From Escherichia coli (GTDB taxonomy: Bacteria; Pseudomonadota; Gammaproteobacteria; Enterobacterales; Enterobacteriaceae): a stretch of DNA of 64,000 nucleotides. Shown piece after piece: positions 11,479 to 27,144 of the stretch (its first letter is position 1; each line of letters starts with the position of its first letter). The translations under genes and the position numbers were made by a program. The notes under the pieces were generated by a model. That model did no database searches and was not told the origin of the DNA. It worked only from the letters and a program-made list of their open reading frames with translations. Location: NCBI RefSeq assembly GCF_003991155.1, contig NZ_CP031293.1; one strand, given 5' to 3'.

Positions 11479-11497
11479 AATGGTGCGATAATAGGAA
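11479..11497. repeat. attR: distal copy of the thrW 3' end
   Basis: AATGGTGCGATAATAGGA matches AATGGTGCCGATAATAGGA at 31059-31077, with one C missing. Confidence 0.75.
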
Positions 11498-11558
11498 CAA
11501 TACACATAGGCGATAAGCTTTGTTTTTGTTGCCTTTTTTATTGTTCATTTTTTATAGA

Positions 11559-11578
11559 TACCCCCAAAAGTACCCCCA
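11559..11578. repeat. tandem TACCCCCA arm-type repeats (attR arm)
   Basis: TACCCCCAaaagTACCCCCA sits about 60 bp inside attR. The same pair with the same 12-bp period occurs at 30928-30947 next to int. Confidence 0.6.
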
Positions 11579-11697
11579 TATCTTTTTCCGCCCCTGAAAT
11601 TTGGTTGTTATTCATACAGCATATCAGGCGGTAACGCTCTCCCTTTAACCCACTTATTGTATGATAGTGCTATCCCACAATAAGGAATCAGCCAGCC

Positions 11698-12057
11698 ATG
11701 AGAATGACCAGTCGCAAAAAAGAGATACTTAGCTACTTTGAACCGGATAACCTCGAATGGGTGACTGGTGAGATTGGTGCGCCGCCGTTCGATGTGTCGG
11801 GTGTGGCCTACCTGCTTCATGGCATGGTGTCGTTCGATAAGCGTCACCAGCTCGAATCAACCCGGCGAACACTGGAAAGCATGGTTGCTGGTGGACTGCT
11901 TGAGCGGGTGACAGTGTATGAATCGCGCCAGATACGGCGCGGCGGTGATACTAACGCAACGGTCGTGCGCTACGGTTTACCCGGTCAGTGCGCTGTTATG
12001 CGCGATACTGGCGGCGCTGACAACGCAATATCAGGTGAATACATGCGGGTCAGTTAA
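11698..12057 (+). CDS. hypothetical 119-aa protein (possible winged-helix)
   Basis: ORF preceded by an 8-bp inverted repeat, CTTATTGT-N16-ACAATAAG. Its 3' end overlaps the convergent pRiA4b-ORF3-like gene by 8 nt. No family recognised. Confidence 0.45.
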   Translation: MRMTSRKKEILSYFEPDNLEWVTGEIGAPPFDVSGVAYLLHGMVSFDKRHQLESTRRTLESMVAGGLLERVTVYESRQIRRGGDTNATVVRYGLPGQCAVMRDTGGADNAISGEYMRVS

Positions 12058-12592
12058 TAGCCTGCAATCTGTCGTTGATGCGGCTCAGGTCGTAAACCCG
12101 GCGTTCAATATCCAGCATCAGGAAATTGTGGATCTCGGCCTGCTCAGGATTATCAGACTCTCTGGCCTGTAATAGCAATTCATTGTAACCATGCAAGCCG
12201 CCTGAGTTTTCCGCCGGGGTGGTGCCTTTCCCACGCAGGCAGCTAATGGGCTGATTACTCGTATCGTGTGTTTGCTTCTCCAGCACAATGACGCAATCCC
12301 ACCAGTCGCCAAAGTCATACGTGTAAACCAGCTTGTCACCCTCATTCTGGAGCGCCGCCCATAGTGGCGTGATTGCCGCGTTACCCATGCTTTCATCCTC
12401 ACCCCATACGCGATACTCGCTACCTGGATCACCTTTACGCCCTTTCTCGAACATATACAGGTGTTCGTCATTCCAGCCAAAAGCTAACTGGATCACGGCA
12501 TGAAGTTTACTAAAGGGGATTTGCTCTGGAACCAGCACACGCCGCCATATAGGTGGTTTGCTGTCTCGGATGGTTATCTTTAGCTGGTACAT
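12050..12592 (-). CDS. plasmid pRiA4b ORF-3 family (MM3350-like) protein
   Basis: N-terminus MYQLKITIRDSKPPIWRRVLVPEQIPFSKLHAVIQLAFGWNDEHLYMF plus DFGDWW and GGLHGYNELL motifs, typical of this family as I remember it. Confidence 0.7.
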   Translation of the reverse strand: MYQLKITIRDSKPPIWRRVLVPEQIPFSKLHAVIQLAFGWNDEHLYMFEKGRKGDPGSEYRVWGEDESMGNAAITPLWAALQNEGDKLVYTYDFGDWWDCVIVLEKQTHDTSNQPISCLRGKGTTPAENSGGLHGYNELLLQARESDNPEQAEIHNFLMLDIERRVYDLSRINDRLQAIN

Positions 12593-12712
12593 GCAAATCC
12601 TGAATAAATGCGAATCGGAAGGATAACGATACTGACGTACTCACAATTCTGTAAAGGTGAATAAAGGAAATTTGCTTAATACGCATAAGTTACATGTGGA
12701 ATAATCCCATAT

Positions 12713-12898
12713 CTACCTGCGCGGCGCTGGCTTCTTCCACTGGTAGGCAGGTGCTCGCATCATTTCGCGGAACCTGTCGCGCCGGGCTATATCGGCATTA
12801 ACTGATCGTTCTATCTCCCGTTGATCTGCCTGTGTAAGCTGGTGGCCTCCGTGCTCAAGTTTGGCGATGGTCAATAAGGCTATTTCGCGTGGTGTCAT
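12713..12898 (-). CDS. hypothetical 61-aa basic protein
   Basis: ORF with GAGGG about 10 nt upstream of the ATG. No homology recognised. Confidence 0.4.
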   Translation of the reverse strand: MTPREIALLTIAKLEHGGHQLTQADQREIERSVNADIARRDRFREMMRAPAYQWKKPAPRR

Positions 12899-13127
12899 AC
12901 GTCATACCCTCTGGAAGGATGAAACACGCCCGGATTAAATTTCATTTTTCGCGGGTATAAAAAAACGATGGGGCGGGCAGTCCCGGATAGTCAGGGCTGT
13001 AGAGATTTGACTACCCCCTCCCCACTGGATTCAGGTTACTGCTATTCCGTTAAGCGCTGCTTACGGGGATAGCTGCGTTGTGATTTTGACCATTCAGGTC
13101 GCCGCTATTTCCTCACCGATTGGGTGC

Positions 13128-13147
13128 TACGCGCGCGCGTACTTGTC
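13128..13147. repeat. GC-palindrome repeat R1 (TACGCGCGCGCGTACTTGTC)
   Basis: First of four related copies (see 14520, 14754, 14807). R1 and R2 align over about 45 bp. Confidence 0.6.
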
Positions 13148-13195
13148 CCGAAATACCAGAAACCGCCAGCCAGAGGATGATTTCCCTCTGGTGGT

Positions 13196-13477
13196 CTACC
13201 TTTGCCTCTTGCCGCCATTTAACCGGAAGGCGTTACCGTTCGGTTGCGCTATCCCCATGCGGTGTTGCGTTTCGGTAACAGCTTTATGCAGGTCGCCAAA
13301 TTCCTCAACCTTCACGGGCGGGCGCTTCACGTTCTCCAGACACGTTTCACGGCGGCGCTTTATCCATTCCCGATCATCGTCCTCGGTGCATAACAGCATG
13401 ACTTCCATCCATCGTGCGGCAGCTCTCCGGTATAGCCCTTTTGACTCCAGCTCTTCAGCTTTCCTGTCCCTTATCAT
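13196..13477 (-). CDS. PerC/Pch-family transcriptional activator-like protein
   Basis: 93 aa. MIRDRKAEELESKGLYRRAAARWMEVML...RRRETCL matches the PerC-family signature (LE-KGL-RRAA-RW) as I recall it. Confidence 0.6.
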   Translation of the reverse strand: MIRDRKAEELESKGLYRRAAARWMEVMLLCTEDDDREWIKRRRETCLENVKRPPVKVEEFGDLHKAVTETQHRMGIAQPNGNAFRLNGGKRQR

Positions 13478-13506
13478 TTCTGCCTCTCAGATTATATAGA
13501 TAAGCA

Positions 13507-13634
13507 AAAAGGTGTTGGTTCAGTTGGTTCAGTTGGTTCAATTTGTAAAGATCGTTGTTTTTATTGTGTTTTTTCTGAAATGTTGAACCAACATCAACTC
13601 ATTTTGAACCAACACAGCCCAGCTCTGAACCAAC
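13507..13634. repeat. iteron-type origin-like element (ori-prime / crr-like)
   Basis: Three contiguous GTTGGTTCA (13514-13540), a 43-bp AT-rich spacer, then three inverted TGAACCAAC at 13584, 13605 and 13626 (21-bp phasing). Confidence 0.7.
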
Positions 13635-13686
13635 AACACAGCGATAGCTTTGTGATTGGTCCGTTATTTTCTGGCTGATATTTGAG

Positions 13687-13717
13687 CGTATAACAGTGTT
13701 ATACAGTGGTATACTGT
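13687..13717. promoter_or_regulatory. two adjacent palindromic operator-like sites upstream of the RHH gene
   Basis: TATAACAgTGTTATA (13687-13701) and ATACAGTggtatACTGTAT (13699-13717). They overlap a TATACT -10-like hexamer. Confidence 0.4.
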
Positions 13718-13736
13718 ATGGATATTACTCACTGAT

Positions 13737-14192
13737 ATGGTCTTTGCAATGAGCAAATCTAATCTGATCGCGTTCCGCATCCCATCTGAATTGCAGGATG
13801 AGTTTAATCGGTCTGTTCTCGCTTCTGGAGGGGATAAAACCTCCTGGCTTGTTGATGCGATTCGCATGAAGCTGGGACAGCCGGAAAAGTCTATTGATTC
13901 ACGAATGCTTGGGCTGGTGGAGCGCATGGAAAAAGCCGCTGCGTCGCTTATTGCCGGAAAGCCGAACATCCCACCAAAGCCATATAACGAAACGGCAGTT
14001 ATAAAGATCATTGCCGATACCATCCAACAGGGATTTGATAATGGGCGTGTGATAGCTGAACGGATCAATGAAGCAGGCTATCAAACAAAAGCTGGTAAAG
14101 CGTGGGATAAAGATATTTACAGCGCGTGGAAGCGTCAGGGAAGCAATGCTGAAAAGTTAAAAGCGGTGATTGATTGTAAGGTCAGCGTATAA
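13737..14192 (+). CDS. ribbon-helix-helix (Arc/Mnt/CopG-like) DNA-binding protein with an extra C-terminal domain
   Basis: N-terminus SNLIAFRIPSELQDEFNRSVLASGGDKTSWLVDAIRMKL fits the RHH strand-helix-helix pattern. The alternative start is 13749. The remaining ~100 aa are unassigned. Confidence 0.55.
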   Translation: MVFAMSKSNLIAFRIPSELQDEFNRSVLASGGDKTSWLVDAIRMKLGQPEKSIDSRMLGLVERMEKAAASLIAGKPNIPPKPYNETAVIKIIADTIQQGFDNGRVIAERINEAGYQTKAGKAWDKDIYSAWKRQGSNAEKLKAVIDCKVSV

Positions 14193-14271
14193 ACATGAGT
14201 GCCCATTGGAAAGCTGCTTGGGCCAATACCTTTATACACCAGCAGGTGGTGACGATAGGTGAGGATTAGGC

Positions 14272-14493
14272 ATGAAAGGCAGAACGCCACACATTGAACA
14301 TCAAGCCAACCACTTCTCGGATGTTCGCAATGAGATGATTGCCATTCGCGGTGATATGCACGGCTTGGAGCGTCGAATTATTGATAAGATTGATGAAAAT
14401 AGAGATAAGGCCAGTGAAAATCAAAAGTGGATCATCGGCCTGTTGATTTTATCAATTCTTATCCCGCTACTTATCGCATTGGTCACAAAATGA
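14272..14493 (+). CDS. 73-aa protein with coiled-coil N-terminus and a single C-terminal TM helix
   Basis: GAGG RBS 9 nt upstream. The C-terminus is WIIGLLILSILIPLLIALVTK. The architecture resembles XhlA/holin-like small membrane proteins (inference only). Confidence 0.5.
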   Translation: MKGRTPHIEHQANHFSDVRNEMIAIRGDMHGLERRIIDKIDENRDKASENQKWIIGLLILSILIPLLIALVTK

Positions 14494-14519
14494 ATATCCA
14501 ATGTGTATGCTGTCGATGC

Positions 14520-14537
14520 TACGCGCGCGTACTTGTC
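14520..14537. repeat. GC-palindrome repeat R2 (TACGCGCGCGTACTTGTC)
   Basis: See R1. Located 27 nt after the stop of the 73-aa gene. Confidence 0.6.
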
Positions 14538-14753
14538 GCAAAATATCAGGCAAAGGCCAGATTCAGAAATTCGTGATAACCACCAGCACAACATGAGAGG
14601 TCATGTAACGCGATTTATCACACCAGATACATGTGATTGGTGTACCCGCATAAAACATCGTCATAGCGCGTCCTGTGCGCATATACGCCGATAATCAACA
14701 CATCACCACCACTCTGTCTCATGTAGAGAACAGTTTTATGGTACTCCCCTCCA

Positions 14754-14770
14754 TCGTGCGCGTACTGGTC
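14754..14770. repeat. GC-palindrome repeat R3 (TCGTGCGCGTACTGGTC)
   Basis: Degenerate copy, same orientation as R1, R2 and R4. Confidence 0.5.
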
Positions 14771-14776
14771 GGACGT

Positions 14777-14798
14777 AGTTGCAAAATTTTTTGCAACT
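14777..14798. repeat. inverted repeat AGTTGCAA-N6-TTGCAACT between R3 and R4
   Basis: 8-bp perfect arms read directly from the sequence. Confidence 0.5.
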
Positions 14799-14806
14799 GA
14801 TACCCC

Positions 14807-14823
14807 TCGCGCGCGTACTGGTC
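14807..14823. repeat. GC-palindrome repeat R4 (TCGCGCGCGTACTGGTC)
   Basis: See R1. Confidence 0.55.
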
Positions 14824-15036
14824 ACGAAATTGGTGTTTTGCTGTGGCAGTGATATCAGAAAAATCTTCCTGTTTCACATAAAGCGGATATGCGCGTAATG
14901 TAACGGCCCCATCAACTGGGAGCGGATTTGAGCCCGAATGTGTAGGCAATGTCACTTAACGTTTGTCGCATACCTTCCAGAAAAAGCGATTCATGAATAA
15001 TAGGGGCATGAATGCCCGGCGTACCGGGCTTATTAG

Positions 15037-15735
15037 TTAATTTGGTGCTTTAGGGTCAACATTAAAAGTTATATCACCTTCTGTATTTTTCCCGGCATAG
15101 CTAGCGGCTATTCTCGCCAACCCTTTGTAATCAGCAATTCCATCAGACTGTTGCGAGACGACTGAGCTACCAACTTTCCATAACATATTAATCTGCCGAT
15201 TATTGAGATAAGCCTTGGCATCAAACGACTGGAGTATCACCCCTGCGCCGTAGAACGTGTCCGTCACAGTTGTGTTATACGCGCCAGTAATTCCATAAGT
15301 AGGCGTATAAACTGTTGTTGCCGTTCCAGTGGTATTAGCTGTACCGTAGCCACCACCATAACTATTGAACGTGGTGTTCGAGTTTCCGTACGTTGTTGCT
15401 GAGCTCACACCAGTTTGCCCGTATATTGGGATGGTTACATTACGAGTATTTGAAATGGCCCCGCTTCTCAAAAAGTTCAAGAGAATTACCTGGTCAGCCA
15501 ATTTTTCATCTTTAACTTGTGTATATCCTTGGCTTGATAAACTGGCGGCTACTACCGTAGCTATTTGAGTGTATTCAATCTGTTTGGTGTTCCAAAGTTC
15601 TTGGCTTGCGGGGATGATCAAGAACTTCTTACCGACAGATTGCCCGGAAGATAAAGCATTGACCGTTACTAACGGTTTTTGTACGCATCCAGCCAATAAT
15701 GACAGGGATAATATTAAAAGAAGATTTTTAATCAT
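15037..15735 (-). CDS. lipoprotein (moron-like)
   Basis: 232 aa. Signal peptide with lipobox MIKNLLLILSLSLLAGC. The central region is Thr/Gly/Tyr/Asn-rich. AGGTGAG RBS. It has its own 150-bp upstream spacer after the 908-aa gene. Confidence 0.75.
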   Translation of the reverse strand: MIKNLLLILSLSLLAGCVQKPLVTVNALSSGQSVGKKFLIIPASQELWNTKQIEYTQIATVVAASLSSQGYTQVKDEKLADQVILLNFLRSGAISNTRNVTIPIYGQTGVSSATTYGNSNTTFNSYGGGYGTANTTGTATTVYTPTYGITGAYNTTVTDTFYGAGVILQSFDAKAYLNNRQINMLWKVGSSVVSQQSDGIADYKGLARIAASYAGKNTEGDITFNVDPKAPN

Positions 15736-15885
15736 GATAATCTCACCTAAGAATTGCGTGGTTATAAATTATCATCACTGTAAGCGAATGTAAGCCACAG
15801 GCTCGTAATGTGATATGGAATTTTGATAGTTGGCTCAATATCAGTATGCCGTCCTTGGCTATTATGGTTTTGTTAGTTAGAGCGT

Positions 15886-18612
15886 CTATTCCCATTCGCT
15901 AACATCTTTCATGCCACTGAGGGTAGCTACAATCCCGGCCCTTGTCAGTTTCACGAATTCTTCAGCCCCAACGGCATCACGAATTGCTTTCATGGCAATT
16001 TTATTGGCCGAAAATCGTTTCTCTGCTGCGGCGATCGCTGCTGGTGATGCCCCTGCGCGCACTGCTTTTGTAGCTTCCTGAACGGCTTTCTCTATCGCAT
16101 ATCGACCACTTCTTGTCGCCCCAATCTTAGCCACAGCATTTCTTAGCGCGCCACCAGCAACCAAACCACTAATCGAACCAATTACACCACCGCCAAAGCC
16201 TCCAGCGATCGCACCTGACTGTTGAACTCCGTTCATAATCACGCCGACGATCTTTGGAAGGCCTGAATCGAGCGTTTTGAGAGCCTCAGTTGTTCTTCCC
16301 GTGCGCTCTACGTATCGCTGCGGTCTGGTACTGGCTTTAGCGAGTACACCGAACTCTTTCATCATTCTACCGAGATCTGGCGCATGACGACTGATGGCGT
16401 TTACATTCTGCTGGGTCATGAGCTTGGCAAAATACTGGATACCTGACTCTTCACCGATTCCTCCCTTCTCTCCCTGCGCCACAGCATGCTGAAGAATAGA
16501 TGCTATTGCAGGTTGGCGTTCTGCTTCCGGCAGCGCGGAGATAAGACGGTGAAAAGCTCCCGTTCCAGTGTTTGCGGATGCCTTAAGCGTATCGGCACCT
16601 TTTCTTACCATAGCGTCTGATGCGAGATCTCGACCAAAAACAGATTCGGCATTTTGTTTGGCGATAATGTAACTTTTAGAGAGATCGTTAGCTTTCTGCC
16701 ATTCTGTGAGGAAGTTTCCTTTTTCAGCCATGATGCGCATGTCATCAGTGATAGCTCTGCGCATTTCTCCGGCAATCCGGGCGGCATTGGCCTTACCTGC
16801 CCGGGTGTTTGCTTGTTCAGCATCAGCAAACTTAGCACGCCATGCCTTCATCCCGTCGAAGGTTATGCCGCCACCTTGGTTGTTGGCAGCCTGAAACTGT
16901 TTCATCTCCGGGCTGAGTGGAACATTGGCTGCTTTTTCTGCTTGGACGACAGCCATCCCATTACTCATTTTCATCCTTTCGCGTGGCATCGTGCTTCGCA
17001 GTTCTGCCCATGCCATATTCTCTGCTGTTTTCATATCACTGAGGCTCGCGATGATGCGCTCTTTAATTGCTGCGCTTTTTTCTGATGCGCTTCCAGACTC
17101 AGCACCGAAATCAGACAACTGCTTATTCAACTTTGAGGATATTTCATTGAAGGCCGTAAGGTGAGCATCCTGAACATTCCCAGGAGTTGATGCCAGAACA
17201 CCTTCTGCTTGGGCAATTCCACGACTACCTGAGCGCATTCCAGGCGTCAGGGTGTTGATATTAATACCAGTGATTTTCGCCGCCTTAGCGACATCATCTC
17301 TGACGTTTGATGCCTGCGATGCGATATGCTCTCGGCCTACGGCAGAACGCGCTGCTTTCGATACATCATTGGCGGTTTCCAGAGTATTTGCTGCCCCTAA
17401 CACATGGCCTGATTGATTTGTATTACTCCGCAATACATCTCGCATTACGTCACTGGCTGTCTGTCCGCTCTTTATTAAAGCGCGTGCTCCTAGCGATCCT
17501 GCTAGGCCAATACCTGTCTCTTTTGCTAGGTCTTCTGGGCTGATCTGCCCGTTCTTTTGGGCGTTCACCAATGTACCTGGCAGGTTTTCTGCCAACATAC
17601 TAGCCACCTTTGTGGCCGCACGTTCAGCACGTGGAGCGTTGGCAACTGAAGAAGCTGCGGTAGCTGCCTTTCCTGCACCTAATCCTGTAATAAGGTAAGG
17701 TGCTAGCTGCTCACCAGCCTGCGCGTATGGATCTGTAGGTTGGTCTACTGGGCGAAAGACAGGTGATATGGGCGTGTATGTGCCATCACCCACACCAAGC
17801 TTCTGAGCTGCCCATGCTCCGGCTGATTGCGCCGCATTGACTACCCCCACGCCTGCGTCCATTACATCAAACGGTATATTAGCAATCCCTCTGGCCATCT
17901 GCTCTGGCGCAGCTTTCAGTCCTGGCGAAAGATATTCCATCTCAGGATTAAGGTTAGACTTGGCTACTTGCTGCTGCGGTTCCCCGGCATTTTCATCGGC
18001 GAGAAACTGAGCTCTTTTCTGCTCCCATGAACTGGCTGTTGGTAGTCCTGCTTCTATGTTCTTAAATTGCTGACGTTTTGCTTCCCATGCAGAAATATCT
18101 CCCACCTGAGAGATTTCTTTATCAAGCTCTGAGTAGTCAGGCTGCTGAAGATTGCGATGTTGACTGGTTTGTGCAAACTGCAAGATTTCACTGTCATCAG
18201 GGATTATTCCGGCATCTGCAAATTTACTTACGTAATTAGCCGTTTCATCTGGCAGTGTAGATTTACCGTTTCTGACGGCATTAATACGAGCATAGCCAGA
18301 ATTATACCCAGCCAATGCCATACCTATATCACCAAATCGCTTCATTCCTTTATTGAGATGGTTTGCTGCGATATCCATTTGCTTTTCAAATGGCAGTGAG
18401 CGCGGATCTGTTCCACGATAACCAGCATCACTCATTACTGAGGGCATCAGTTGAGCAAATCCTCTAGCTCCTTTCGGTGACTCGGCACTTCCGTTACCAC
18501 TAGATTCATTGCCAACTAATGTTTCCATCGTCCCTGATGGGAAACCATATTTTTCATCGAGATGACGGGAATAGGCTTTCTGTTTTTCTGTCAGTTGTGC
18601 CATCATTGCCAT
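15886..18612 (-). CDS. 908-aa protein with N-terminal soluble lytic transglycosylase domain (ejection / internal virion protein-like)
   Basis: SLT motifs near the N-terminus: NESSGN...GARGFAQLMPSV...ALAGYNSGYARI. The remainder is Ala-rich and helical with a Gly-rich hydrophobic segment near the C-terminus. The start overlaps the upstream ORF by 10 nt. Confidence 0.75.
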   Translation of the reverse strand: MAMMAQLTEKQKAYSRHLDEKYGFPSGTMETLVGNESSGNGSAESPKGARGFAQLMPSVMSDAGYRGTDPRSLPFEKQMDIAANHLNKGMKRFGDIGMALAGYNSGYARINAVRNGKSTLPDETANYVSKFADAGIIPDDSEILQFAQTSQHRNLQQPDYSELDKEISQVGDISAWEAKRQQFKNIEAGLPTASSWEQKRAQFLADENAGEPQQQVAKSNLNPEMEYLSPGLKAAPEQMARGIANIPFDVMDAGVGVVNAAQSAGAWAAQKLGVGDGTYTPISPVFRPVDQPTDPYAQAGEQLAPYLITGLGAGKAATAASSVANAPRAERAATKVASMLAENLPGTLVNAQKNGQISPEDLAKETGIGLAGSLGARALIKSGQTASDVMRDVLRSNTNQSGHVLGAANTLETANDVSKAARSAVGREHIASQASNVRDDVAKAAKITGININTLTPGMRSGSRGIAQAEGVLASTPGNVQDAHLTAFNEISSKLNKQLSDFGAESGSASEKSAAIKERIIASLSDMKTAENMAWAELRSTMPRERMKMSNGMAVVQAEKAANVPLSPEMKQFQAANNQGGGITFDGMKAWRAKFADAEQANTRAGKANAARIAGEMRRAITDDMRIMAEKGNFLTEWQKANDLSKSYIIAKQNAESVFGRDLASDAMVRKGADTLKASANTGTGAFHRLISALPEAERQPAIASILQHAVAQGEKGGIGEESGIQYFAKLMTQQNVNAISRHAPDLGRMMKEFGVLAKASTRPQRYVERTGRTTEALKTLDSGLPKIVGVIMNGVQQSGAIAGGFGGGVIGSISGLVAGGALRNAVAKIGATRSGRYAIEKAVQEATKAVRAGASPAAIAAAEKRFSANKIAMKAIRDAVGAEEFVKLTRAGIVATLSGMKDVSEWE

Positions 18613-19922
18613 CCCTTAAGTTTTGCCTGATAGTAACTTTCCGGCAGATAGCCATGTGCGGTCACATAATCCTTAACCAGTGAAGGATCCTGCAACAGCA
18701 TTTTGGTATCAGTTTCTTCGTCCTTAGATTTGGTTACAGGAATACCGAGCCCGGCAATCTGTCGTTTCTGCATTCGAATAATTACGTCCTGCGCTTTATT
18801 CAACTCTCGCAAAAATGCCTCATTGCTGGTTGCTGACTTAATGCCATTTTGAGATTGCATAAGGGCAGCCCTTTCCCCTTCGGTTGGGTTAGAGCCAAAA
18901 GTCCCTTTGAGGCTAGGCAGAATAACCTTTAGGTTGTATTCATCAGCTTTGGCGCGTAGGCTTCGTGTGTCTTCTGCTACATCAGGAAGGAATCCAAACC
19001 CCAGCGTCAGGGGGTTATAGTTCTGCGAGCGGGTAACGGCCGAAGGATGTTTCCCTACAATTCCCGCCAGTTCATGACCCACTTCAAGCGCAGAGTTCAA
19101 GGAGTCGATGTTACCTACAACAGTATTAATTTTATCGTTCATCTTCTCCACTTTCGCCTGCTGTACCTTGCTCAGTTCAGCATTGAGCTTGTCTCTCTCG
19201 ATGTCATTTTGAGCACGTCCAAGTCGTGCTTTCAGAACCATTTCTCTCGTGCGTAGTTGGTTATCGGATAGGACTTTGAACTGCTCCATATCGAGACGTC
19301 GATTACCCTGTTCCGCATTAACCTGAGCATTATATGCGGATGTATCTGCGTTCTGCTGTGCAATGCTCTGCCCTTGCTGCTTCTCTTGAACACTAAAGTA
19401 ACTATTTGGATCAGCATGGAGGTGGATGAGGTCAGTGATTCTGTTGAATTCCTGTGGGTCATTCTGCCAAGACTGATAAACCTCTTCAGCAGGAAGACCA
19501 AATCGCTGTAATACTGGATTTGCCTGCTGAATGGCCTTCTGCATGGTCAGTGGATCTCCAGTTTGTGACGCAAGACGCAGATTCATGGCAGCGTCAGCGG
19601 TCTGTCGATTTTGCTCAGCATCAATGAATCCCATCTGTTTTTGAGAATCAGCCATAAACTGGGGATACTGGGCCATTAACTTCTGCACGCCAACACGATC
19701 ATTATTAGCTACCGCACTACCCAACCGTGCCTGATATTCTTTTAACTGCTGGGAAATTTGCGCCTGCTGATTAATCTCAGCAACGCCTCTTAGCCCCTGT
19801 AGCGCCATTAAACCTACGTTTGGCTGCTGCTGATACTGCACAGGCTGAGGAACGGAAGAACGAGGAGCATTATCATTTTGCGGTGCCATGCTAGGCAGCC
19901 CGCCAAGTTGCCATGTCGCCAT
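18603..19922 (-). CDS. 439-aa Gln-rich coiled-coil protein (ejection protein-like, P22 gp20-sized)
   Basis: Long uninterrupted ORF. Its start overlaps the upstream stop by 1 nt. Composition and position inside the cassette are the only evidence. Confidence 0.6.
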   Translation of the reverse strand: MATWQLGGLPSMAPQNDNAPRSSVPQPVQYQQQPNVGLMALQGLRGVAEINQQAQISQQLKEYQARLGSAVANNDRVGVQKLMAQYPQFMADSQKQMGFIDAEQNRQTADAAMNLRLASQTGDPLTMQKAIQQANPVLQRFGLPAEEVYQSWQNDPQEFNRITDLIHLHADPNSYFSVQEKQQGQSIAQQNADTSAYNAQVNAEQGNRRLDMEQFKVLSDNQLRTREMVLKARLGRAQNDIERDKLNAELSKVQQAKVEKMNDKINTVVGNIDSLNSALEVGHELAGIVGKHPSAVTRSQNYNPLTLGFGFLPDVAEDTRSLRAKADEYNLKVILPSLKGTFGSNPTEGERAALMQSQNGIKSATSNEAFLRELNKAQDVIIRMQKRQIAGLGIPVTKSKDEETDTKMLLQDPSLVKDYVTAHGYLPESYYQAKLKGWQ

Positions 19923-20599
19923 TAGAATCCAAGCCCCCCAACAAGACCAATAAGCCCACCACCAATAGCGCCGGCCGCAGTTCCTATTCCAGGAACAACG
20001 GAACCAAGTTGCGCACCCGCTAAAGCGCCTGATGCTGCCCCACCAATACCACGCGCAAGACTGGATGGCTGCTGCGCCTGACCTGCACGAATAGCGCCAA
20101 GCCCCTGCAAGAGTTGTCCGGTATTATTGGCGTAGTTTTGCCCTGCCGTTGCCTGCCCTGATGCCGCATTCATCCCGACATTTAGCAGGTTTCCATAATT
20201 TTGCATTTGCCCACTAAGCCAATTGTTATAAAGCATGGGCGCAATGGAAGATAACTGGTTACTGGTAGCTGTTGAGCCAAGCCCCCCGGTAGCTTCTGCT
20301 GAGACAAGGTTCTGATAACGGGCCTGATCTGCCTGTGTTTTATATAAACCAGAACCAAAGAAATCATTCGCGGCTTTATTCTGCCCTTCCAGAGTCATCA
20401 GTCCTTGCAGTTGTTGTAAAGCAGGCAATCCGACTTCTGCATACGGCTTGAGATTATTCATCACCGTATTCCACTGCTCGCGCTGCAAATCAATTGCCTG
20501 CTGCTGGGCCTTCGCCTGAGCTTTAGAGGCACCACCATCACCGCCTTTTTCGTATACGGCACGATTGAGATGTTTATGAGCTATATGGGTAATTAACAT
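19922..20599 (-). CDS. 225-aa Gly/Ala/Gln-rich protein with hydrophobic Gly-zipper C-terminus (ejection protein-like, P22 gp7-sized)
   Basis: ATGTTAA start/stop overlap with the upstream ORF. C-terminus is GSVVPGIGTAAGAIGGGLIGLVGGLGF. Confidence 0.55.
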   Translation of the reverse strand: MLITHIAHKHLNRAVYEKGGDGGASKAQAKAQQQAIDLQREQWNTVMNNLKPYAEVGLPALQQLQGLMTLEGQNKAANDFFGSGLYKTQADQARYQNLVSAEATGGLGSTATSNQLSSIAPMLYNNWLSGQMQNYGNLLNVGMNAASGQATAGQNYANNTGQLLQGLGAIRAGQAQQPSSLARGIGGAASGALAGAQLGSVVPGIGTAAGAIGGGLIGLVGGLGF

Positions 20600-21054
20600 T
20601 CGCTGAATTCCTTATATTGTTGCCGAGTTAACTGATAAAGCGTTACGCCGACGGGTTTACCACATCTGATATAAGCATCATCAAGGTGACCAACACGGGT
20701 AGCGCCAAGCAAACGGATAATTGCCCGTCCATATTTTGTGGTGTCAGGAACCATAGTGATGCTGTTAAGGAATGGTGAGTTTTCGAGAAGCCATTTGCAG
20801 AATAATCGATGCCCTTGCAGTGCATATTCACCACGGAATCCGGGGTCGTACACCGCATGGCATTCAACAACGCTATGCCAGAAGTTACGCACTTCATGAA
20901 CGCCAGCCAGCACTAATCCTTCGTAGATGCCGAGATATACCGCATCAGGCTTGATGTAGTACGTGTGCCCCGGCTCAACAATATTTTCGGTATTGCCTGG
21001 CTCGTTAAGAAAGGCCTGTAATCGCACAGGGTTATCAATAAATTTTAGTTCCAT
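20593..21054 (-). CDS. 153-aa protein, possible acetyltransferase-like fold (P22 gp14-sized)
   Basis: ORF contains DPGFRGEYALQGHRLFCKWLL, which resembles GNAT motif A. First large gene of the cassette. Assignment is tentative. Confidence 0.5.
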   Translation of the reverse strand: MELKFIDNPVRLQAFLNEPGNTENIVEPGHTYYIKPDAVYLGIYEGLVLAGVHEVRNFWHSVVECHAVYDPGFRGEYALQGHRLFCKWLLENSPFLNSITMVPDTTKYGRAIIRLLGATRVGHLDDAYIRCGKPVGVTLYQLTRQQYKEFSEC

Positions 21055-21070
21055 GCGATGCCATCCATTT

Positions 21071-21232
21071 TCACATACAGCCTGCCAGCGCCTTATCTAT
21101 TAACCCTCGTGCAATTTCATGCAGAGTTGGCGCTACTCCAATTCCTGATTTTTTACGCTGCTCTTCCTGAATTTTCTTTATCGCTTCCATTTGCTTCTCA
21201 CTTATCAATACCGGCTTTACTGAAATAGCCAT
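21071..21232 (-). CDS. 53-aa possible ribbon-helix-helix protein
   Basis: AAGGGGGG RBS before ATG 21232 (MAISVKPVLISEKQMEAIKKI...). The longer 96-aa ORF-track version would include an intrinsic terminator, so the internal start is preferred. Confidence 0.45.
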   Translation of the reverse strand: MAISVKPVLISEKQMEAIKKIQEEQRKKSGIGVAPTLHEIARGLIDKALAGCM

Positions 21233-21328
21233 AACGCCCCCCTTAGAACTGTATAAAACAACAGTTATTATAGTTTCACAAATCGCAATATTCATCATCG
21301 TAATTGCAAAATATGAAACAAATAGCAC

Positions 21329-21361
21329 AAAAAAATGCCACCGCTCAGTAGCTGGTGGCAT
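21329..21361 (-). terminator. rho-independent terminator ending the primase operon
   Basis: On the minus strand: ATGCCACC-N11-GGTGGCAT followed by TTTTTTT. Confidence 0.7.
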
Positions 21362-21681
21362 CGTTCTGTGTGTCAGGTTTTGACAGGTTTTTTATGGACT
21401 CTAAAAACTATATTTATGGTATCGCATTACTCTTCACGGCAGGTGCTTTTCAGTTCTGCCCTTGCTTCTGGCTCCATTGGTAATTTGATTCGCGATCAGC
21501 TATGCGGATGGTTTGCTGAACAGGCATAACAACTTCTCAGAGGCTGTTTTTTGAACTACGAAAATTTCGTAGTGCTCACTTTCAAAAACGTCACGCCCTT
21601 GTACACAGGATTTTACGAAAGTCTCGTAAAACACTCTCTGATGCCAGCCAGGTGTTGTGCGCATCAATTCAGTCACATTGT

Positions 21682-21799
21682 GTCGGTTCAAAATACCGTG
21701 TTGTTGGTTCAGTGTTGGTTCAATAAAAAGAATAAAATCCTTATAAAACAATACACTTTACAAATTGAACCAACTGAACCAACTGAACCAACACCTTTT
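21682..21799. repeat. iteron-type replication origin adjacent to the primase gene
   Basis: GTCGGTTCA and two GTTGGTTCA (21682, 21703, 21714), a 43-bp AT-rich spacer, then three contiguous TGAACCAAC (21766-21792). 21756-21799 is the exact reverse complement of 13507-13550. Confidence 0.75.
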
Positions 21800-21817
21800 C
21801 TACGCACATGAAGAAGC

Positions 21818-24577
21818 TCATTCTTCAGATGAGTTATAATCTCCTGGCTGGTAATTGAGTACATAAACGTTTATTTGTCGTCCCTGAATACGTGGTGATT
21901 TTCTTTGGTATCCACGACCGCTGTTTGGTGGGGTTAGCATCCCGGCTTTTTTCAACACTTCAGCAAACTGTTTTGCGTTGAAACCACATGCGATCTCCTT
22001 TTCAAATGTGGCCGGGAATGTGTAGAAAATCATTGGGCTTTCGTCATGTTCTCCACGCTGACGGTATCCGGCTAAATCTTTGATGGGCAAATCTGCCGGG
22101 CTGTATGGAAATGGTGCAAAACGGCTAAGCCCATAGGCATTAAGAAATGCCTCCGTTTGTTCAATAATCTGCTGATGCTCTTTGTTACCTGTGCCGAACT
22201 CGCGCAACCATGCGTTATAGCTGTGCTGTATCGCATCACGGCATGTCTGAGCATCCCAGCCTGTTACAACCTCGCCTAACAACAATGCGGCCTCCAGAAT
22301 GGCAAATCGCGCGGCTACACGGTGAACCTGCTCACCATAATCGGATGGGATCAGGCTTCTCCATCTGCTTTCGCAATCACGAACGGTTTTAATAGCCTGT
22401 TGCTGGTGGTGTGCCAGCCATTTAATCCACTCACGCCCGGACGCGCCGTGGTGATGCTGGTAAGCGTCTTTCAGTGCGTCTGCGTGCTGTTTTCCGTTCT
22501 GGTAATCGTGAAAGCGTACTGCTTTACTCAACGGAATATTCAGCAGTCGCACCAGTTGCCCGGCTTTGGTTTTTCGCCCGGAAGTAGCGATAAATGTTTC
22601 TAAATCCATTTCTCCGGTGCTGATTGCCACTGTACGCCAGCGTTTTAGATCCCGGTTTCCACCATCTTTAGCGCCTTGCAGTTTCCCTACACCGTTAAAT
22701 AACGCATAGGCAGACTGTGAAACGCTGACAGGATCAGCGCCCTGACCAACTTCATCAAGCGGCATTAGTCCGTCATTGTGGGCGGCGGCCTCATTTGCCA
22801 GCCCCAGCGCGGTTCCGTACCACGTCAGCCGCAGTAAATCAGGGTTGCCGTATAAGCTGCTCGCCACGTTTGCCGTGGTGGTCTTACCTGCGCTCGACTG
22901 CTCATAGAAATGAATGCCGAACCCGTCAGCGCCCACCAGCCCAATCAATGGCGCTGCCAGTGCTGCGCCGATCCCGGTCATCATTGAATAGTTACCAAAG
23001 GCCAGACGCGCCACGTTATCACGCCAGCTTTTCGCGCTCCCTGAGACGGTATATCCGGCTGCGGCTGAGCTTCTCCCGCTGAACAGCACAGGATTTTCAG
23101 GTGTTCCGATGATTTCCCCATCAGGCATGATGTACGCTCCGCATTGCCAGCCAGTGGCATGAGCAACACGCCACAATTCACGAGAGCCACTGCGTTGTAG
23201 CCAGTCTGCCAGTATTGCTCTGAGGCTGCTTTTGGTCGTGACATTTACCCCACCAGCTTTAAGTGTGCGCCATCCTTCACGTTCACCAATATCAGCCAGT
23301 GGAATGGCAGCGGTTGTCGGCGTTTCAGAACCAAACGACAGCCAGCGAAGAATGAGATACTGGTCTTTATCGTCTCTGCCAGTACCGATAACGCTTAACG
23401 GAGAACATAACCAGCTTTCGTTATTGATGATTTCTCCACTCTGGCTGTCAGCTCTCGGAGATACCCAATAAATACCATCCTCGCGGCTTTCTATTCTTGG
23501 TTTCAGTGGGTCGGTATCCATAACCTTAAAATCGCTTCCCTCAATGGTCTGTGGCTCCTGTTTCACGCCATTACCCTGTGGTTGGTACATTGACTTATTG
23601 AACGCTTCTGTGGCGCATTTAATGCCGTGTTTTTGGTGGTAATCATTCCAGTCTGCTTTGTGATCTGTCGGGGGTAATGCCACCCATCCAGAAACAGATA
23701 AAGCTGCTTTTTCTGCTGCTATTCTCCCCGTGTTTTGTCTTCCTTCGCTGTGGTCGTTATCCGCAGCAATGATGATTTGTGCTGAAGGAAATTTATCCCG
23801 CAGTACCTGGGCGACATATAACAGGTTCCCGGCATCAATCGCCGCCACTGTCAGCGCCTCTGGACGAATTAAATGGGCAGATAATGCCGTTGCCAGACCT
23901 TCTGCGATTAAGATGCTCTGTGTTGTTTCTGGTGCGTTTATGGCGTGATATGCCCCCCGCTTTGCTGAACCTGTCAGGAGTCTTTTTTCACCATGTGAGG
24001 TAATAGTCTGTGCTGCTGTGACTGCGCCGGATTTATCCACCAGCGCCAGCAACAGAGATCCATCGGGCAACACGGGGAATGTAAAATCACCTACCCCTTT
24101 CGCAACCAGATAATCAGATTTGCCGTTTACAGCCTTTCTGCGCATGTCATCAAACTGACGGGAAAACGTATCCCGTCTTTGTTGTTCGTCCTTCTCTGCC
24201 CTTTTCAGGCGCTCCTGTTCGCGTCGCTGGCGCTCGGTTTCCAGTTGTTCCCGTTTCTGGCTGGTGGCTTCTGGTGTTTCCGTTGTCCGGTAATCAATAC
24301 CCAGAACATCAGCGGCAAGAAGCGCCGCCTCTGTTGTGTCGCAGTTATTTACGCGTTTAATTAAATCCAGCCCATCACCAGCGCCGCACTGATTACAGAT
24401 GAAGCTACCGCGCCCGTTGTCATCGAACCGGAATCGATCTTTGCCCCCACATGCAGGGCAGGGAGCATGACGGCGCGGAGAGTCAGGGACATTTATGTTC
24501 AGGCAGCCCAGCACATGAGGCCAGTTGTTTTCAGACGCACTGATAACCTGACGGATAAGATCAATGTTTCGCATCAC
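21818..24577 (-). CDS. primase-helicase (Zn-ribbon + TOPRIM + DUF927/P-loop), functional analogue of P4 alpha
   Basis: Zn ribbon CPACGGKDRFRFDD...FICNQCG; TOPRIM-like ILIAEGLATALS...IIIAADND; Walker A YEQSSAGKTT. GTG 24577 or ATG 24574 start overlapping the upstream stop. Confidence 0.85.
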   Translation of the reverse strand: MMRNIDLIRQVISASENNWPHVLGCLNINVPDSPRRHAPCPACGGKDRFRFDDNGRGSFICNQCGAGDGLDLIKRVNNCDTTEAALLAADVLGIDYRTTETPEATSQKREQLETERQRREQERLKRAEKDEQQRRDTFSRQFDDMRRKAVNGKSDYLVAKGVGDFTFPVLPDGSLLLALVDKSGAVTAAQTITSHGEKRLLTGSAKRGAYHAINAPETTQSILIAEGLATALSAHLIRPEALTVAAIDAGNLLYVAQVLRDKFPSAQIIIAADNDHSEGRQNTGRIAAEKAALSVSGWVALPPTDHKADWNDYHQKHGIKCATEAFNKSMYQPQGNGVKQEPQTIEGSDFKVMDTDPLKPRIESREDGIYWVSPRADSQSGEIINNESWLCSPLSVIGTGRDDKDQYLILRWLSFGSETPTTAAIPLADIGEREGWRTLKAGGVNVTTKSSLRAILADWLQRSGSRELWRVAHATGWQCGAYIMPDGEIIGTPENPVLFSGRSSAAAGYTVSGSAKSWRDNVARLAFGNYSMMTGIGAALAAPLIGLVGADGFGIHFYEQSSAGKTTTANVASSLYGNPDLLRLTWYGTALGLANEAAAHNDGLMPLDEVGQGADPVSVSQSAYALFNGVGKLQGAKDGGNRDLKRWRTVAISTGEMDLETFIATSGRKTKAGQLVRLLNIPLSKAVRFHDYQNGKQHADALKDAYQHHHGASGREWIKWLAHHQQQAIKTVRDCESRWRSLIPSDYGEQVHRVAARFAILEAALLLGEVVTGWDAQTCRDAIQHSYNAWLREFGTGNKEHQQIIEQTEAFLNAYGLSRFAPFPYSPADLPIKDLAGYRQRGEHDESPMIFYTFPATFEKEIACGFNAKQFAEVLKKAGMLTPPNSGRGYQRKSPRIQGRQINVYVLNYQPGDYNSSEE

Positions 24578-24932
24578 CGTACCCCACGTGGTCTATAGCG
24601 TTTGCGATATGGCTAACCAGCATCTGCCACTTGGTTATTCCGTAATCAGTCAGCATGCCATCATTGTTTAGCCACATATCAAATTCAGCGGTTGTCGCAA
24701 GTTTCCACTTATCGCCGTGGACAGTCCTCATTGCTGGGTACATGAATGCGCAAATCAGATCACAAACATCTGACGGCTTCAGAGATGTAGTAATGGTGCG
24801 TCCCTCTGGCGTCTGAATTGCCATTTTCTCTTCACCAGTAGAATGAAGGTTATGAATCCACACAGCACCAGCAATCTTTGCCACCTGCTCTCCGATTGCG
24901 GAGCTAAGCGCCATTTCTGCATTTTCACGCAT
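24561..24932 (-). CDS. hypothetical 123-aa protein (paralog family B)
   Basis: GGAGG RBS. 8-nt overlap with the upstream stop. Shares ...YP...DG-LTD-G--WQ-(M/L)V with the 113-aa ORF. Confidence 0.55.
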   Translation of the reverse strand: MRENAEMALSSAIGEQVAKIAGAVWIHNLHSTGEEKMAIQTPEGRTITTSLKPSDVCDLICAFMYPAMRTVHGDKWKLATTAEFDMWLNNDGMLTDYGITKWQMLVSHIANAIDHVGYGDAKH

Positions 24933-25266
24933 GAGAACCTCCCGCTACAGTTGCGCCCATGTCATTAACCATGCTTTGCCATATCTCACGCCCGACGTCA
25001 GTCAATCCGTCCTTAGTGACGCAACGTTCAAGAAGCTCGATCCCCACGGTTTCCCACTGCGGGTAGAACACTTTCATGGCTGCCAGTGTGTAGCTATCGA
25101 TCAGGCTGCGAACGCCTTTTACTCCATTGACGATTTCCACACGGACGGCCTCGCCGTCCGCATCAACCATGAAATAGTCCCCGCCGCTGGTGGAGGTAAT
25201 GTGGTTATACAGTGCCGACGCATACTTATTTGCCAGCGCATTCAGTCGGAAATTTTTAGTAATCAT
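24925..25266 (-). CDS. hypothetical 113-aa protein (paralog family B)
   Basis: GGAG RBS 5 nt upstream. C-terminal motif is FYPQW...KDGLTDVGREIWQSMV. Confidence 0.55.
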   Translation of the reverse strand: MITKNFRLNALANKYASALYNHITSTSGGDYFMVDADGEAVRVEIVNGVKGVRSLIDSYTLAAMKVFYPQWETVGIELLERCVTKDGLTDVGREIWQSMVNDMGATVAGGSHA

Positions 25267-25276
25267 GGCTCCATCC

Positions 25277-25879
25277 TCAGTGCGTCACTGGTTCCGCTGG
25301 CATGCCGTTTTCATTCAGTTCAGCTATAAAGCTGTTGTGAAGTTCAGCAAGCGTTTCACGCCCAAATGGAGTCAGTGCTCCTTGTTCCACATCCATCATG
25401 GCTCTGTAGAAAATAATGGCGCGTTCTGTGCCAGACTCGATGCCAAAACGTTCTATCATCGCGCCCTCAATGTTGTTTGCCATAGCGAGGCGCTCTGCTA
25501 CTGGATACAGCGGCATGGCGACGATGCCGTTGGAATAAACAGCCACTTCGGAAGGATTGCCAGTATCATCAATGATGCTGACAGTGCCGTTTTCCTCTCT
25601 CATTTCCAGCATGAATACTGTTGCGATCAGCCATCTCCACATAATGACGTTATGCTGTGATGTGTAATCGAAATATCCCTGGTTACCGCCATCGGCAATA
25701 GCGAGATGTATTGACATACCTTCATCTGGTTTATCGTCATAATCCCCGGCATCCAGACGATTTACGGCATCAATATATGAGATGGCCTCAACGCGTTCTG
25801 TCATGCCATCGTTGCTGCGGTACATGATGTTTACGCCGTCAGGCGTTGCTTCTGCATGGAAAGTTAAGAAATTATTCAT
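25277..25879 (-). CDS. hypothetical 200-aa protein (C-terminal half related to family B)
   Basis: Internal start MNNFLTF with a GAGG RBS, overlapping the upstream stop by 8 nt. The C-terminal half carries LYPVA...GALTPFGRETLAEL. Confidence 0.5.
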   Translation of the reverse strand: MNNFLTFHAEATPDGVNIMYRSNDGMTERVEAISYIDAVNRLDAGDYDDKPDEGMSIHLAIADGGNQGYFDYTSQHNVIMWRWLIATVFMLEMREENGTVSIIDDTGNPSEVAVYSNGIVAMPLYPVAERLAMANNIEGAMIERFGIESGTERAIIFYRAMMDVEQGALTPFGRETLAELHNSFIAELNENGMPAEPVTH

Positions 25880-26093
25880 GTTTCGCCTCGCCTGAATGAT
25901 TCTGTAACTCATATTTGCCCAACAATTCGTCCGCTTCCTGAATAGCTTCTGGTACGCCATTGAGCAGTGACATAACCGCGCCAATCATTAACTTGTCTCT
26001 GTTGCTGGGGCTGGCCCCTTCAAGCCAGAACCCTAAAACAGTCTGAACCTGTTCGATGCGACATTGCGCTTCAATGAGCTGGATGTTGGTCAT
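25872..26093 (-). CDS. hypothetical 73-aa helical protein (paralog family A)
   Basis: Its start overlaps the upstream ORF's stop by 4 nt. Predicted two-helix pattern. Confidence 0.45.
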   Translation of the reverse strand: MTNIQLIEAQCRIEQVQTVLGFWLEGASPSNRDKLMIGAVMSLLNGVPEAIQEADELLGKYELQNHSGEAKHE

Positions 26094-26942: not shown

Positions 26943-26951
26943 GTGGCAGCC

Positions 26952-26991: not shown

Positions 26992-26997
26992 TTTCGC

Positions 26998-27077: not shown

Positions 27078-27144
27078 ATTGATTGACAAAGGCGCTGGAT
27101 TATACACCAACGCCCAAAAAATGGGTGAGTCAGACCTACGACAT

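Follow-up and report, generated by a model that had tools for sequence, protein, structure and literature searches.

The closest described relative of the element studied here is EcCIMP1, a 19,963-bp satellite of Escherichia coli MP1 that lies in tRNA-Thr between proA and yagU (Pick, Stadel and Raivio 2025, PMC11773190). EcCIMP1 is induced, excised, circularized and transduced with the help of the P22-like phage Kapi1, its transduction rate is low, and it confers superinfection immunity (PMC11773190). We analyzed a 64,000-nt stretch of the E. coli chromosome (the window; NCBI RefSeq assembly GCF_003991155.1, contig NZ_CP031293.1) holding an island that shares with EcCIMP1 the site of integration, the att core, the size and the order of genes. 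This island carries two plus-strand open reading frames, ORF A and ORF B, which a preliminary description of the sequence had singled out as a module. Our best overall explanation, to which we assign a probability of roughly 0.55, is that ORF A encodes a ribbon-helix-helix (RHH) autorepressor and ORF B a cargo protein expressed in lysogens, and that the two genes travel in an exchangeable cassette of a phage-inducible chromosomal island (PICI).

Further comparisons come from phages and from other repressor families. In P22, the genes 14-7-20-16 are convergent with mnt-orf59a-sieA, that is, the gene for an RHH repressor lies opposite the 14-7-20-16 block and is followed by small or membrane-protein genes in the immI region, and ORF A-ORF B show the same layout. 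The P22 mnt operon is expressed in lysogens, and Mnt occupies its operator as a tetramer held together by a C-terminal coiled coil, to which a conserved helix after the RHH domain of ORF A forms a parallel. Unlike Mnt, ORF A is not a member of PF03869, has an additional helix-turn-helix (HTH) domain, and has its operator over its own promoter only. The autorepressors CopG, Arc and MetJ have a beta-alpha-alpha motif, phased repeats over the promoter and co-variation of beta-strand and operator, all of which are paralleled in ORF A; the difference is that in ORF A the RHH domain is followed, in one polypeptide, by a central helix and a recombinase-type HTH, a combination that no Pfam or NCBIfam model covers. 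Proteins of the XhlA family are ~70-110 aa long and consist of a coiled-coil helix and a single C-terminal transmembrane (TM) helix, as does ORF B. XhlA of Bacillus PBSX is a lysis-cassette protein, encoded with holin and amidase; unlike PBSX xhlA, ORF B is not in a holin/amidase lysis cassette and sits in lysogen-expressed, immI-type or cargo positions. Finally, the cargo (defense) hotspots of satellites such as P4-like elements and PICIs have a conserved core gene beside a variable segment, as found at ORF A. Unlike those of the described defense hotspots, the occupants here, including ORF B, are known from sequence, and PADLOC recognizes neither ORF A nor ORF B.

The argument for autorepression starts from the DNA upstream of ORF A. 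Two palindromes had been reported there across a -10-like TATACT (13710-13715), and both are exact: TATAACAgTGTTATA at 13689-13703 (8-nt arms at 13688-13704) and ATACAGTggtatACTGTAT at 13701-13719 (7-nt arms). The same operator precedes a homologous gene in 90 loci from many genera. When the upstream DNA of 45 loci is aligned, a conserved element stands out that is present in every genus examined and abuts a TGnTAnAnT extended -10. In the window the element reads GTATAAC-agt-GTTATAC-agtg-GTATACT and contains half-sites in 10-bp phase (GTATAAC at 13688-13694, GTTATAC at 13698-13704 and the inverted GTATAC at 13709-13714), the third of which coincides with the extended -10 TGgTATACT (13707-13715), from which transcription is predicted to begin near 13722. 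A consensus promoter scan returned no -35/-10 promoter because the promoter, proposed from the alignment of the 45 upstream regions, is an extended -10 without a recognizable -35. When the 271-nt intergenic region was shuffled 2000 times with its dinucleotides preserved, at least three palindrome hits arose in 0.65% of the shuffles and two within 20 nt in 2.3%; conservation over 90 loci is a much stronger argument for an operator than these shuffle statistics.

The aligned upstream regions also revealed a second operator class, TGTCTTAC-nn-TGTCTTAC-nnTGnTAAAAT, in which the first palindrome is a direct repeat, so the unit common to both classes is a phased TGTnnnAC and not the palindrome itself. 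Operators of type GTATAACnnnGTTATAC (GTATAAC/GTTATAC) always occur with the beta-strand KSNL[IV]AFR (69 loci) and those of type TGTCTTACnnTGTCTTAC always with KSLSVTFR (21 loci); none of the 90 pairs is discordant, and both classes are found inside the genus Buttiauxella. The unbiased sample for this co-variation consists of the 43 genome loci (23 and 20), the viral loci having been retrieved by operator pattern. The window holds a single copy of the operator. Across the 2.9 million viral contigs of IMG/VR, the operator with its adjoining extended -10 gave 48 exact matches, and all 47 that could be read are followed, ~35 nt downstream, by an ORF A homologue; the 48th ends at the edge of its sequence stretch. 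Because the operator is exclusive to ORF A promoters and co-varies with the beta-strand, the RHH domain of ORF A very probably recognizes its own promoter, and nothing else detectable, and would repress its own gene.

The protein itself fits this role in its N-terminal part. The preliminary description had listed a 151-aa and a 73-aa frame on the plus strand, 79 nt apart; both are present and the gap stands, and it is the length of the first product that needs correction. The longer frame (13737-14192) does hold 151 codons, and the conserved start, also chosen by the Prokaryotic Genome Annotation Pipeline (PGAP), is the ATG at 13749 (MSKS...), which gives 147 aa. The equivalent Met (MSKS or MNKS) is the start in 19 of 19 aligned homologues, one of which has a 4-residue N-terminal extension, and in Klebsiella and Raoultella loci the ATG matching 13737 is out of frame. 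The ratio of nonsynonymous to synonymous substitution rates (dN/dS) is 0.08-0.10 against homologues from other genera, indicating purifying selection. The alignment divides into three parts, namely the N-terminal 45 residues, a conserved helix (R52-L67) and a nearly invariant block, DNGRIIAERLNEAGYQTKAGKAWDKDIYSAWKRQ, with a variable tail; this tail begins at about residue 133, and exchange breakpoints fall in it. The helix at residues 49-68 possibly serves oligomerization.

A profile of the N-terminal domain built from 15 sequences matched, in register, the structures of CopG (7ak7, E=6.7e-5), VapB26 (4.4e-4), Mnt (0.011), CopG (6xrw, 0.024) and MazE6 (0.085) in the PDB, all aligned over residues ~7-45, and so bears out the earlier assignment of an RHH fold; the profile needed restriction to this domain and the addition of distant homologues. 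A profile of the whole protein against PDB sequences gave a single match, ribosomal L14, which we judged spurious. Distant homologues found by an exhaustive HMMER search share the architecture and have sub-threshold Pfam matches, N-terminal to RHH_1, TacA1, NikA-like and Arc models and C-terminal to Recombinase and HTH_62. Membership of the Mnt/Arc family proper did not hold up: ORF A has no PF03869 match at E<=1, and the true Mnt of P22-like prophages scores 3.3e-10 on this model. The second domain, left unassigned in the preliminary description, is larger and more conserved than the RHH domain, and AlphaFold models residues 80-145 as a helical bundle with a confidence (pLDDT) of about 90. 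A Foldseek comparison with viral structures gave nothing at E<0.8.

Clustering at 90% identity gives 365 groups of ORF A homologues, and every named record is from Enterobacterales. A tblastn search of 50,697 phage genomes with ORF A gave no match, nor did a megablast search with the region return a phage. At the 48 loci from other species, ORF A lies on islands that share genes with the window island (the primase in about half of the stretches; int, alpA, PerC or small hypotheticals elsewhere), and wherever int was captured, ORF A sits at the island end far from it and reads inward. On this distribution ORF A is a core gene of this PICI family across Enterobacterales that is restricted to PICI-like islands, and both the protein family and its combination of an RHH domain with a recombinase-type HTH seem to be undescribed and specific to these islands. 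One 175-aa homologue (P0192) joins the RHH domain of ORF A, with the type-2 beta-strand MTKSLSVTFRVPAEL, to an unrelated C-terminal region ending in hydrophobic TM-like segments; it probably arose by recombination in the hotspot where ORF A ends.

When the window is aligned with EcCIMP1, a discrete unit emerges around ORF A and ORF B (Table 1). The flanks at 13470-13635 and 14513-15040 are near-identical in the two islands, the DNA between them is wholly replaced, and the coordinates first proposed for the module come close to these limits. At the same site EcCIMP1 carries an alternative cassette of ~1.2 kb with a paralogue of a 61-aa gene and the Xis-like alpA_1, which supports helper excision (PMC11773190). 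By alignment and by its ORFs EcCIMP1 has neither ORF A nor ORF B, and both are absent from the description in PMC11773190. EcCIMP1 still excises, circularizes and transfers, and ORF A and ORF B are therefore dispensable for transfer. We rejected ORF A as a master repressor of the island and as a factor essential for replication or packaging, since EcCIMP1 without it is induced, excised and transduced. We also dropped the idea that the variable downstream genes make the two-gene module a mere illusion, because in E. coli both genes are exchanged as one cassette.

Table 1. Coordinates of the features discussed (positions in the window)
Feature	Position	Strand	Description
EcCIMP1-like PICI	11487..31077	-	tRNA-Thr insertion, between yagU/pao and proA; 19.6 kb
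Iteron array it1	13509..13640		GTTGGTTCA x3 tandem, AT-rich spacer, TGAACCAAC x3 at 21-nt spacing
Exchangeable cassette (operator/promoter, ORF A, ORF B)	13636..14512	+	from the window aligned with EcCIMP1
Operator/promoter of ORF A	13688..13715	+	conserved element in aligned upstream regions
ORF A	13749..14192	+	147 aa; RHH residues 1-45, helix 49-68, recombinase-type HTH bundle 80-130
Shine-Dalgarno AGGTGAGGA of ORF B	14257..14265	+	read from sequence
ORF B	14272..14493	+	73 aa; residues 1-51 charged helix, 53-71 TM anchor, two residues beyond
Terminator-like hairpin	15014..15029		only one downstream of the promoter; shared with the convergent lipoprotein gene

The pairing of the two genes is loose. 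Among 5426 complete E. coli genomes, ORF A was found in 360 and ORF B in 168, so at most 168 of the 360 genomes with ORF A also carry ORF B. ORF B is missing from all 48 loci in which other species carry ORF A, and prophages carry ORF B homologues without ORF A. The gene following ORF A varies in nearly every species (Abi-like, DUF4065/SocA-like, lipoproteins, membrane proteins or the convergent 61-aa gene). Many of the E. coli matches to ORF A end at nt 399 or 411 and have a gene for an 'Abi family protein' directly after, end points that indicate exchange breakpoints in the variable tail. No terminator was found between ORF A and ORF B. This layout, together with the strong ribosome-binding site (RBS) that ORF B has of its own, supports cargo status over a toxin-antitoxin-like dependency and fits co-transcription. 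By these comparisons ORF B is interchangeable cargo (a moron) in a hotspot whose near edge is the 3' end of ORF A.

ORF B shows the signs of a genuine small membrane protein. Its dN/dS is about 0.24 against two variants, which differ by in-frame 4- and 7-codon indels, and this purifying selection with in-frame indels only upholds the view that the small frame is coding. The RBS and the C-terminal TM helix are where they had been placed: AlphaFold gives one long helix (residues 6-72, pLDDT 81), and the last ~20 residues, WIIGLLILSILIPLLIALV, are hydrophobic, with a maximal 19-residue Kyte-Doolittle mean of 2.95 and only Thr-Lys after them. The predicted topology is N-in and tail-anchored, with a coiled coil that should remain cytoplasmic because there is no signal sequence. 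A direct search returned 24 E. coli-type relatives and a profile search 177, from Klebsiella, Serratia, Citrobacter, Yersinia, Pectobacterium and others. Many of the profile-found relatives, among them some at ~50% identity to ORF B, carry PF10779 and the NCBI name 'hemolysin XhlA family protein', in line with the XhlA-like character suggested before. Homologues of ORF B score E=7.8e-7 (29.6 bits; cut-off 34.7), 4.3e-4 and 0.013 on PF10779, all below the gathering score. In a PHROGs search ORF A and ORF B matched unknown-function families, apart from a weak 'holin' match; ORF B itself matches phrog_6324 (3e-11, unknown function) and weakly phrog_689 'holin' (E=0.0037), and its Klebsiella phage homologue, the one with E=7.8e-7 on PF10779, has E=1.4e-8 on phrog_689. 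With its short length, N-terminal coiled-coil helix and single C-terminal TM helix, ORF B has the XhlA architecture and is, as far as these similarities tell, a divergent XhlA-family protein related to PF10779.

The relatives of ORF B in prophages indicate where such a gene is used. P22-like prophages of E. coli and Citrobacter carry a homologue in their immI region, in which arc-ant lie on one strand and mnt, a gene for a 121-123-aa protein, the XhlA-like gene and a small coiled-coil/TM gene on the other, convergent with gene 16. DNA homology of 80% between the window and this region covers exactly 14234-14491, that is, the RBS and the gene. In the island the 14/7/20/16-type genes likewise lie on the minus strand, opposite ORF A-ORF B, and the positional analogy to immI drawn in the preliminary description is borne out by this arrangement and by the homologues in the prophage mnt operon. 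Siphovirus-type prophages of Klebsiella have an XhlA-like gene in the tail region, in some of them beside an Arc/Arc/antirepressor module. Across the contexts examined (prophage immI and tail regions and the island), an endolysin gene never stands beside the XhlA-like gene. The gene thus seems to recur next to RHH immunity modules, in positions that would be expressed from lysogenic promoters. We found no discussion in the literature of XhlA-like genes in enterobacterial immI regions.

Two observations stand apart from this comparison. P22 orf59a and SieA were considered as relatives of ORF B, and their translations, compared by eye, show no resemblance to it. A K. pneumoniae prophage (L113, 6001-9267) has an immI-like block (an Arc-family gene, Arc and a Bro-N/P22_AR_C antirepressor) with KilA-N and the XhlA-like gene, all placed within the tail-gene cluster and immediately ahead of the tape measure gene; two sibling prophages (L114 and L115) keep the XhlA-like gene and have no Arc/Ant block.

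From these results we propose the following mechanism. The N-terminal RHH domain of ORF A would bind the three half-sites, which are in 10-bp phase and overlap the extended -10 of the gene, acting as a dimer of dimers joined by the conserved central helix, and would repress its own transcription to a low, steady transcript of the lysogen phase. ORF B would ride on this transcript, as the 79-nt gap holds no terminator and the gene has its own strong RBS, and its product would be an XhlA-family, tail-anchored protein of the inner membrane. Co-transcription and insertion into the inner membrane are probable on the layout and the predicted topology. That this membrane function acts against incoming phage, by superinfection exclusion or as defense, is a tentative proposal, drawn from the location of the gene.

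Several points weigh against this explanation. The co-variation of operator and beta-strand splits two clades and may reflect one ancestral switch, which would make it weaker than 90 independent observations. The AlphaFold monomer of ORF A has helices at residues 13-25 and 30-42, and the model forms no strand where an RHH protein should have one, with an N-domain pLDDT of only about 70. ORF A has no Pfam, NCBIfam or PADLOC match, and the near-invariance of its C-terminal domain is not accounted for by a repressor of its own promoter. ORF B itself has no Pfam XhlA match at E<=1 and nothing usable in NCBIfam, which makes its family assignment transitive, and by analogy the lysis-cassette role of PBSX XhlA would point away from exclusion. 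The published superinfection immunity of EcCIMP1 arises without this cassette and so is not due to ORF B.

The analogy to PBSX also underlies one of the two alternatives that survive best, although we consider it unlikely. In it ORF B, as an XhlA- or holin-like accessory of lysis, would permeabilize the inner membrane late in the helper or satellite cycle, and ORF A would silence it until induction. The remote similarity to XhlA (PF10779) and to phrog_689 'holin' is in keeping with such a function, as are the small size and single TM helix of ORF B, and tight autorepression would suit a dangerous product. The gene neighborhoods speak against it. ORF B is flanked by ORF A and by a non-coding stretch followed by the lipoprotein gene, with no endolysin, holin or spanin gene nearby, and neither an endolysin nor a holin gene is found among the neighboring ORFs or the annotated island genes, so that the lysis role entertained in the preliminary description is not indicated. 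Holins are small membrane proteins encoded beside an endolysin and mostly have two or more TM helices or a dual start, whereas ORF B has one TM helix, no second in-frame start near its N-terminus and no endolysin in its vicinity. The homologue in P22-like prophages belongs to the mnt operon, far removed from the lysis cassette of genes 13/19/15, those of Klebsiella prophages lie among tail and immI-like genes, most of the island family is without ORF B, and ORF A has no apparent route of derepression.

The iteron arrays of the island bear on a second alternative. The array it1 forms the left boundary of the exchangeable cassette and is duplicated in inverted orientation at 21680-21800, just 3' of the primase gene, with 45 nt identical. 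It is probably origin-related, the copy at 21680-21800 lying at the expected origin position. An it1-type array is found directly upstream of ORF A in 13 other-species loci and within about 700 bp of it in 3 more. The recombinase- or TerS-like HTH of ORF A might then bind the iteron array or another satellite site for replication or packaging control, with the RHH domain setting the dosage and ORF B being incidental. The C-terminal domain is indeed the most conserved part of ORF A, it1 lies directly upstream in E. coli as in those 13 loci with a repeat sequence kept between genera, and EcCIMP1, which is without ORF A, is transduced at a low rate only (PMC11773190). Yet about two thirds of the ORF A loci have no adjoining iteron array, the C-terminal domain is invariant where the primases have diverged to about 45-55% identity, and EcCIMP1 excises, circularizes and transfers without ORF A (PMC11773190); we regard this alternative as no more probable than a role in lysis.

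As side observations on these boundaries, it1 and the array at 21680-21800 together bracket the accessory half of the island, and loci of Klebsiella, Serratia, Rosenbergiella, Chimaeribacter, Cedecea, Pantoea and Erwinia show this layout too; in some other islands both arrays adjoin each other near the primase. A 23-nt motif (CGCGCGCGTACTTGTCGCAAAAT and variants) is present in three direct copies (14522-14544, 14755-14777 and 14808-14830) within the 540-nt non-coding stretch from ORF B to the lipoprotein gene, its first copy marking the right cassette boundary, and is also found upstream of ORF A in a Serratia (L005) and a Buttiauxella (L015) locus; it may serve as a site of recombination or of protein binding. 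The 61-aa gene (phrog_7271, unknown function) has a second, diverged copy in the EcCIMP1 cassette (L051, 10048-10266, compared with 12713-12898 in the window). In most other genera its place is downstream of ORF A, in the opposite orientation, and in several loci the two genes are direct neighbors.

An extension of the proposal that ORF A is an autorepressor and ORF B its cargo would give the HTH domain a task. ORF A could be a satellite 'cargo driver', an autoregulated lysogen-phase promoter-repressor at the hotspot edge whose HTH couples cargo expression to a conserved signal of the satellite or the helper (the duplicated iteron arrays or a helper protein, for example), and ORF B a new XhlA-fold exclusion protein shared by P22-like phages and satellites. 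We regard this extended version as a long shot.

Still less probable is that ORF A is a functional Mnt analogue that represses an antirepressor or helper promoter in trans and so stabilizes helper lysogeny or island quiescence. ORF A takes the mnt position beside a P22-type 14-7-20-16 block on the opposite strand, Mnt is among its PDB matches, and the island has an antA/B antirepressor and a P1-type C4 antisense RNA. Against this, the single operator of the window lies at the ORF A promoter, the operator with extended -10 was seen in IMG/VR only before ORF A homologues and never in other phage DNA, ORF A has no Pfam Arc/Mnt match, and related islands carry ORF A without the P22-type gene block. 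No arc or ant gene adjoins ORF A, whose divergent neighbor, past the iteron array, is PerC.

Least probable of all is the toxin-antitoxin-like or abortive-infection pair first suggested for this module, with ORF A as the RHH antitoxin/repressor of a membrane-toxic ORF B that is released on phage infection: although RHH domains are common in antitoxins (VapB26 being the second-best PDB match), the regulator comes first and the small membrane protein second, and the hotspot elsewhere holds Abi family genes, the pairing is unconserved in both directions (ORF A stands alone in 48 of 48 other-species loci, ORF B alone in prophages, where its homologue comes after Mnt and a 121-123-aa protein unrelated to ORF A), type II pairs typically have neither a 79-nt gap nor a separate RBS for the second gene, the largest and most conserved part of ORF A is an HTH domain and not a toxin-binding tail, and a PADLOC-DB search at E<=1 gave no match for ORF A, ORF B or five neighboring proteins.

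The element, an EcCIMP1-type PICI, and the kinds of parts in the cassette (an RHH autorepressor, an XhlA-family protein and a moron) are already known, and the findings leave current views standing; they amount to a well-delimited lead. What is added is an unannotated protein family, ORF A, without Pfam, NCBIfam or PHROG function, which is found on widespread PICI-like islands of Enterobacterales and in no searched phage genome and is a possible satellite marker. Its two operator/beta-strand specificity classes offer a ready test of RHH recognition rules. ORF B brings to attention that a fold known as the Gram-positive 'XhlA' is common in the immunity regions of enterobacterial prophages. The cassette occupies a hotspot where relatives hold Abi genes or a helper-aiding excisionase, and its content likely shapes the interactions of satellite, helper and host. 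The EcCIMP1 system, with its Kapi1 helper, mutants and transduction assay, makes these questions directly testable.

The island that carries the cassette can be delimited precisely. A 10-bp att core, GATAATAGGA, occurs at 11487 and 31068 and marks the island ends, the copy at 31068 lying inside tRNA-Thr (31064-31136), which adjoins proA; it is the reverse complement of the published EcCIMP1 att core, TCCTATTATC. On the minus strand the island encodes an integrase, an AlpA-type regulator, an antA/B antirepressor, an Ash protein, a TOPRIM-DUF927 primase, homologues of P22 genes 14, 7, 20 and 16 (DUF2824, gp7-like, gp20-like and gp16-like) and a lipoprotein; on the other side of ORF A and ORF B lie PerC, the 61-aa gene and a PRiA4_ORF3 gene. 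As in PICIs, the length is ~20 kb, the att site is in a tRNA gene, int, alpA and a primase gene are present, and capsid, terminase and lysis genes are absent. Judged by its sequence the island belongs to the EcCIMP1 type of PICI, which exploits P22-like phages. Helper-dependent excision and transduction are known from the near-identical EcCIMP1 (PMC11773190), and the copy in the window is known from its sequence.

Other parts of the island merit brief mention. Rfam matches to the C4 antisense RNA (79.5 bits, 26996-27083) and the isrK Hfq-binding RNA (60.5 bits, 27146-27223), both on the minus strand, lie inside ash (26537-27604), a few hundred bp from antA/B (27773-28606), and suggest a P1/P7-type immI (c4-icd-ant) control unit in a satellite; a scan of 13000-15100 matched no RNA family. 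The lipoprotein gene (15037-15735, minus strand) encodes 232 aa with the lipobox LLAGC and very weak similarity to TraT/DUF4136 (E about 0.06-0.09). It takes a sieA-like position after the gene-16 homologue, is common to the window island and EcCIMP1, and is a better candidate than ORF B for the superinfection immunity of EcCIMP1. In sister islands a multi-pass membrane protein of 129-139 aa takes its place; a SieA-like identity considered for the 139-aa protein was not borne out. The homologues of the P22 virion genes 14, 7, 20 and 16 span 15886-21054 on the minus strand. The product of the gene-16 homologue has 908 aa and bears an SLT lytic transglycosylase domain at its N-terminus; strain LF4-1, which is 100% identical, has a frameshift in this gene. 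In some related islands of other genera, ORFs after ORF A resemble, on visual inspection, genes for tape-measure (L029, L032) or minor-tail (L003, L032) proteins, and the virion-protein cargo of satellites may be matched to the type of helper.

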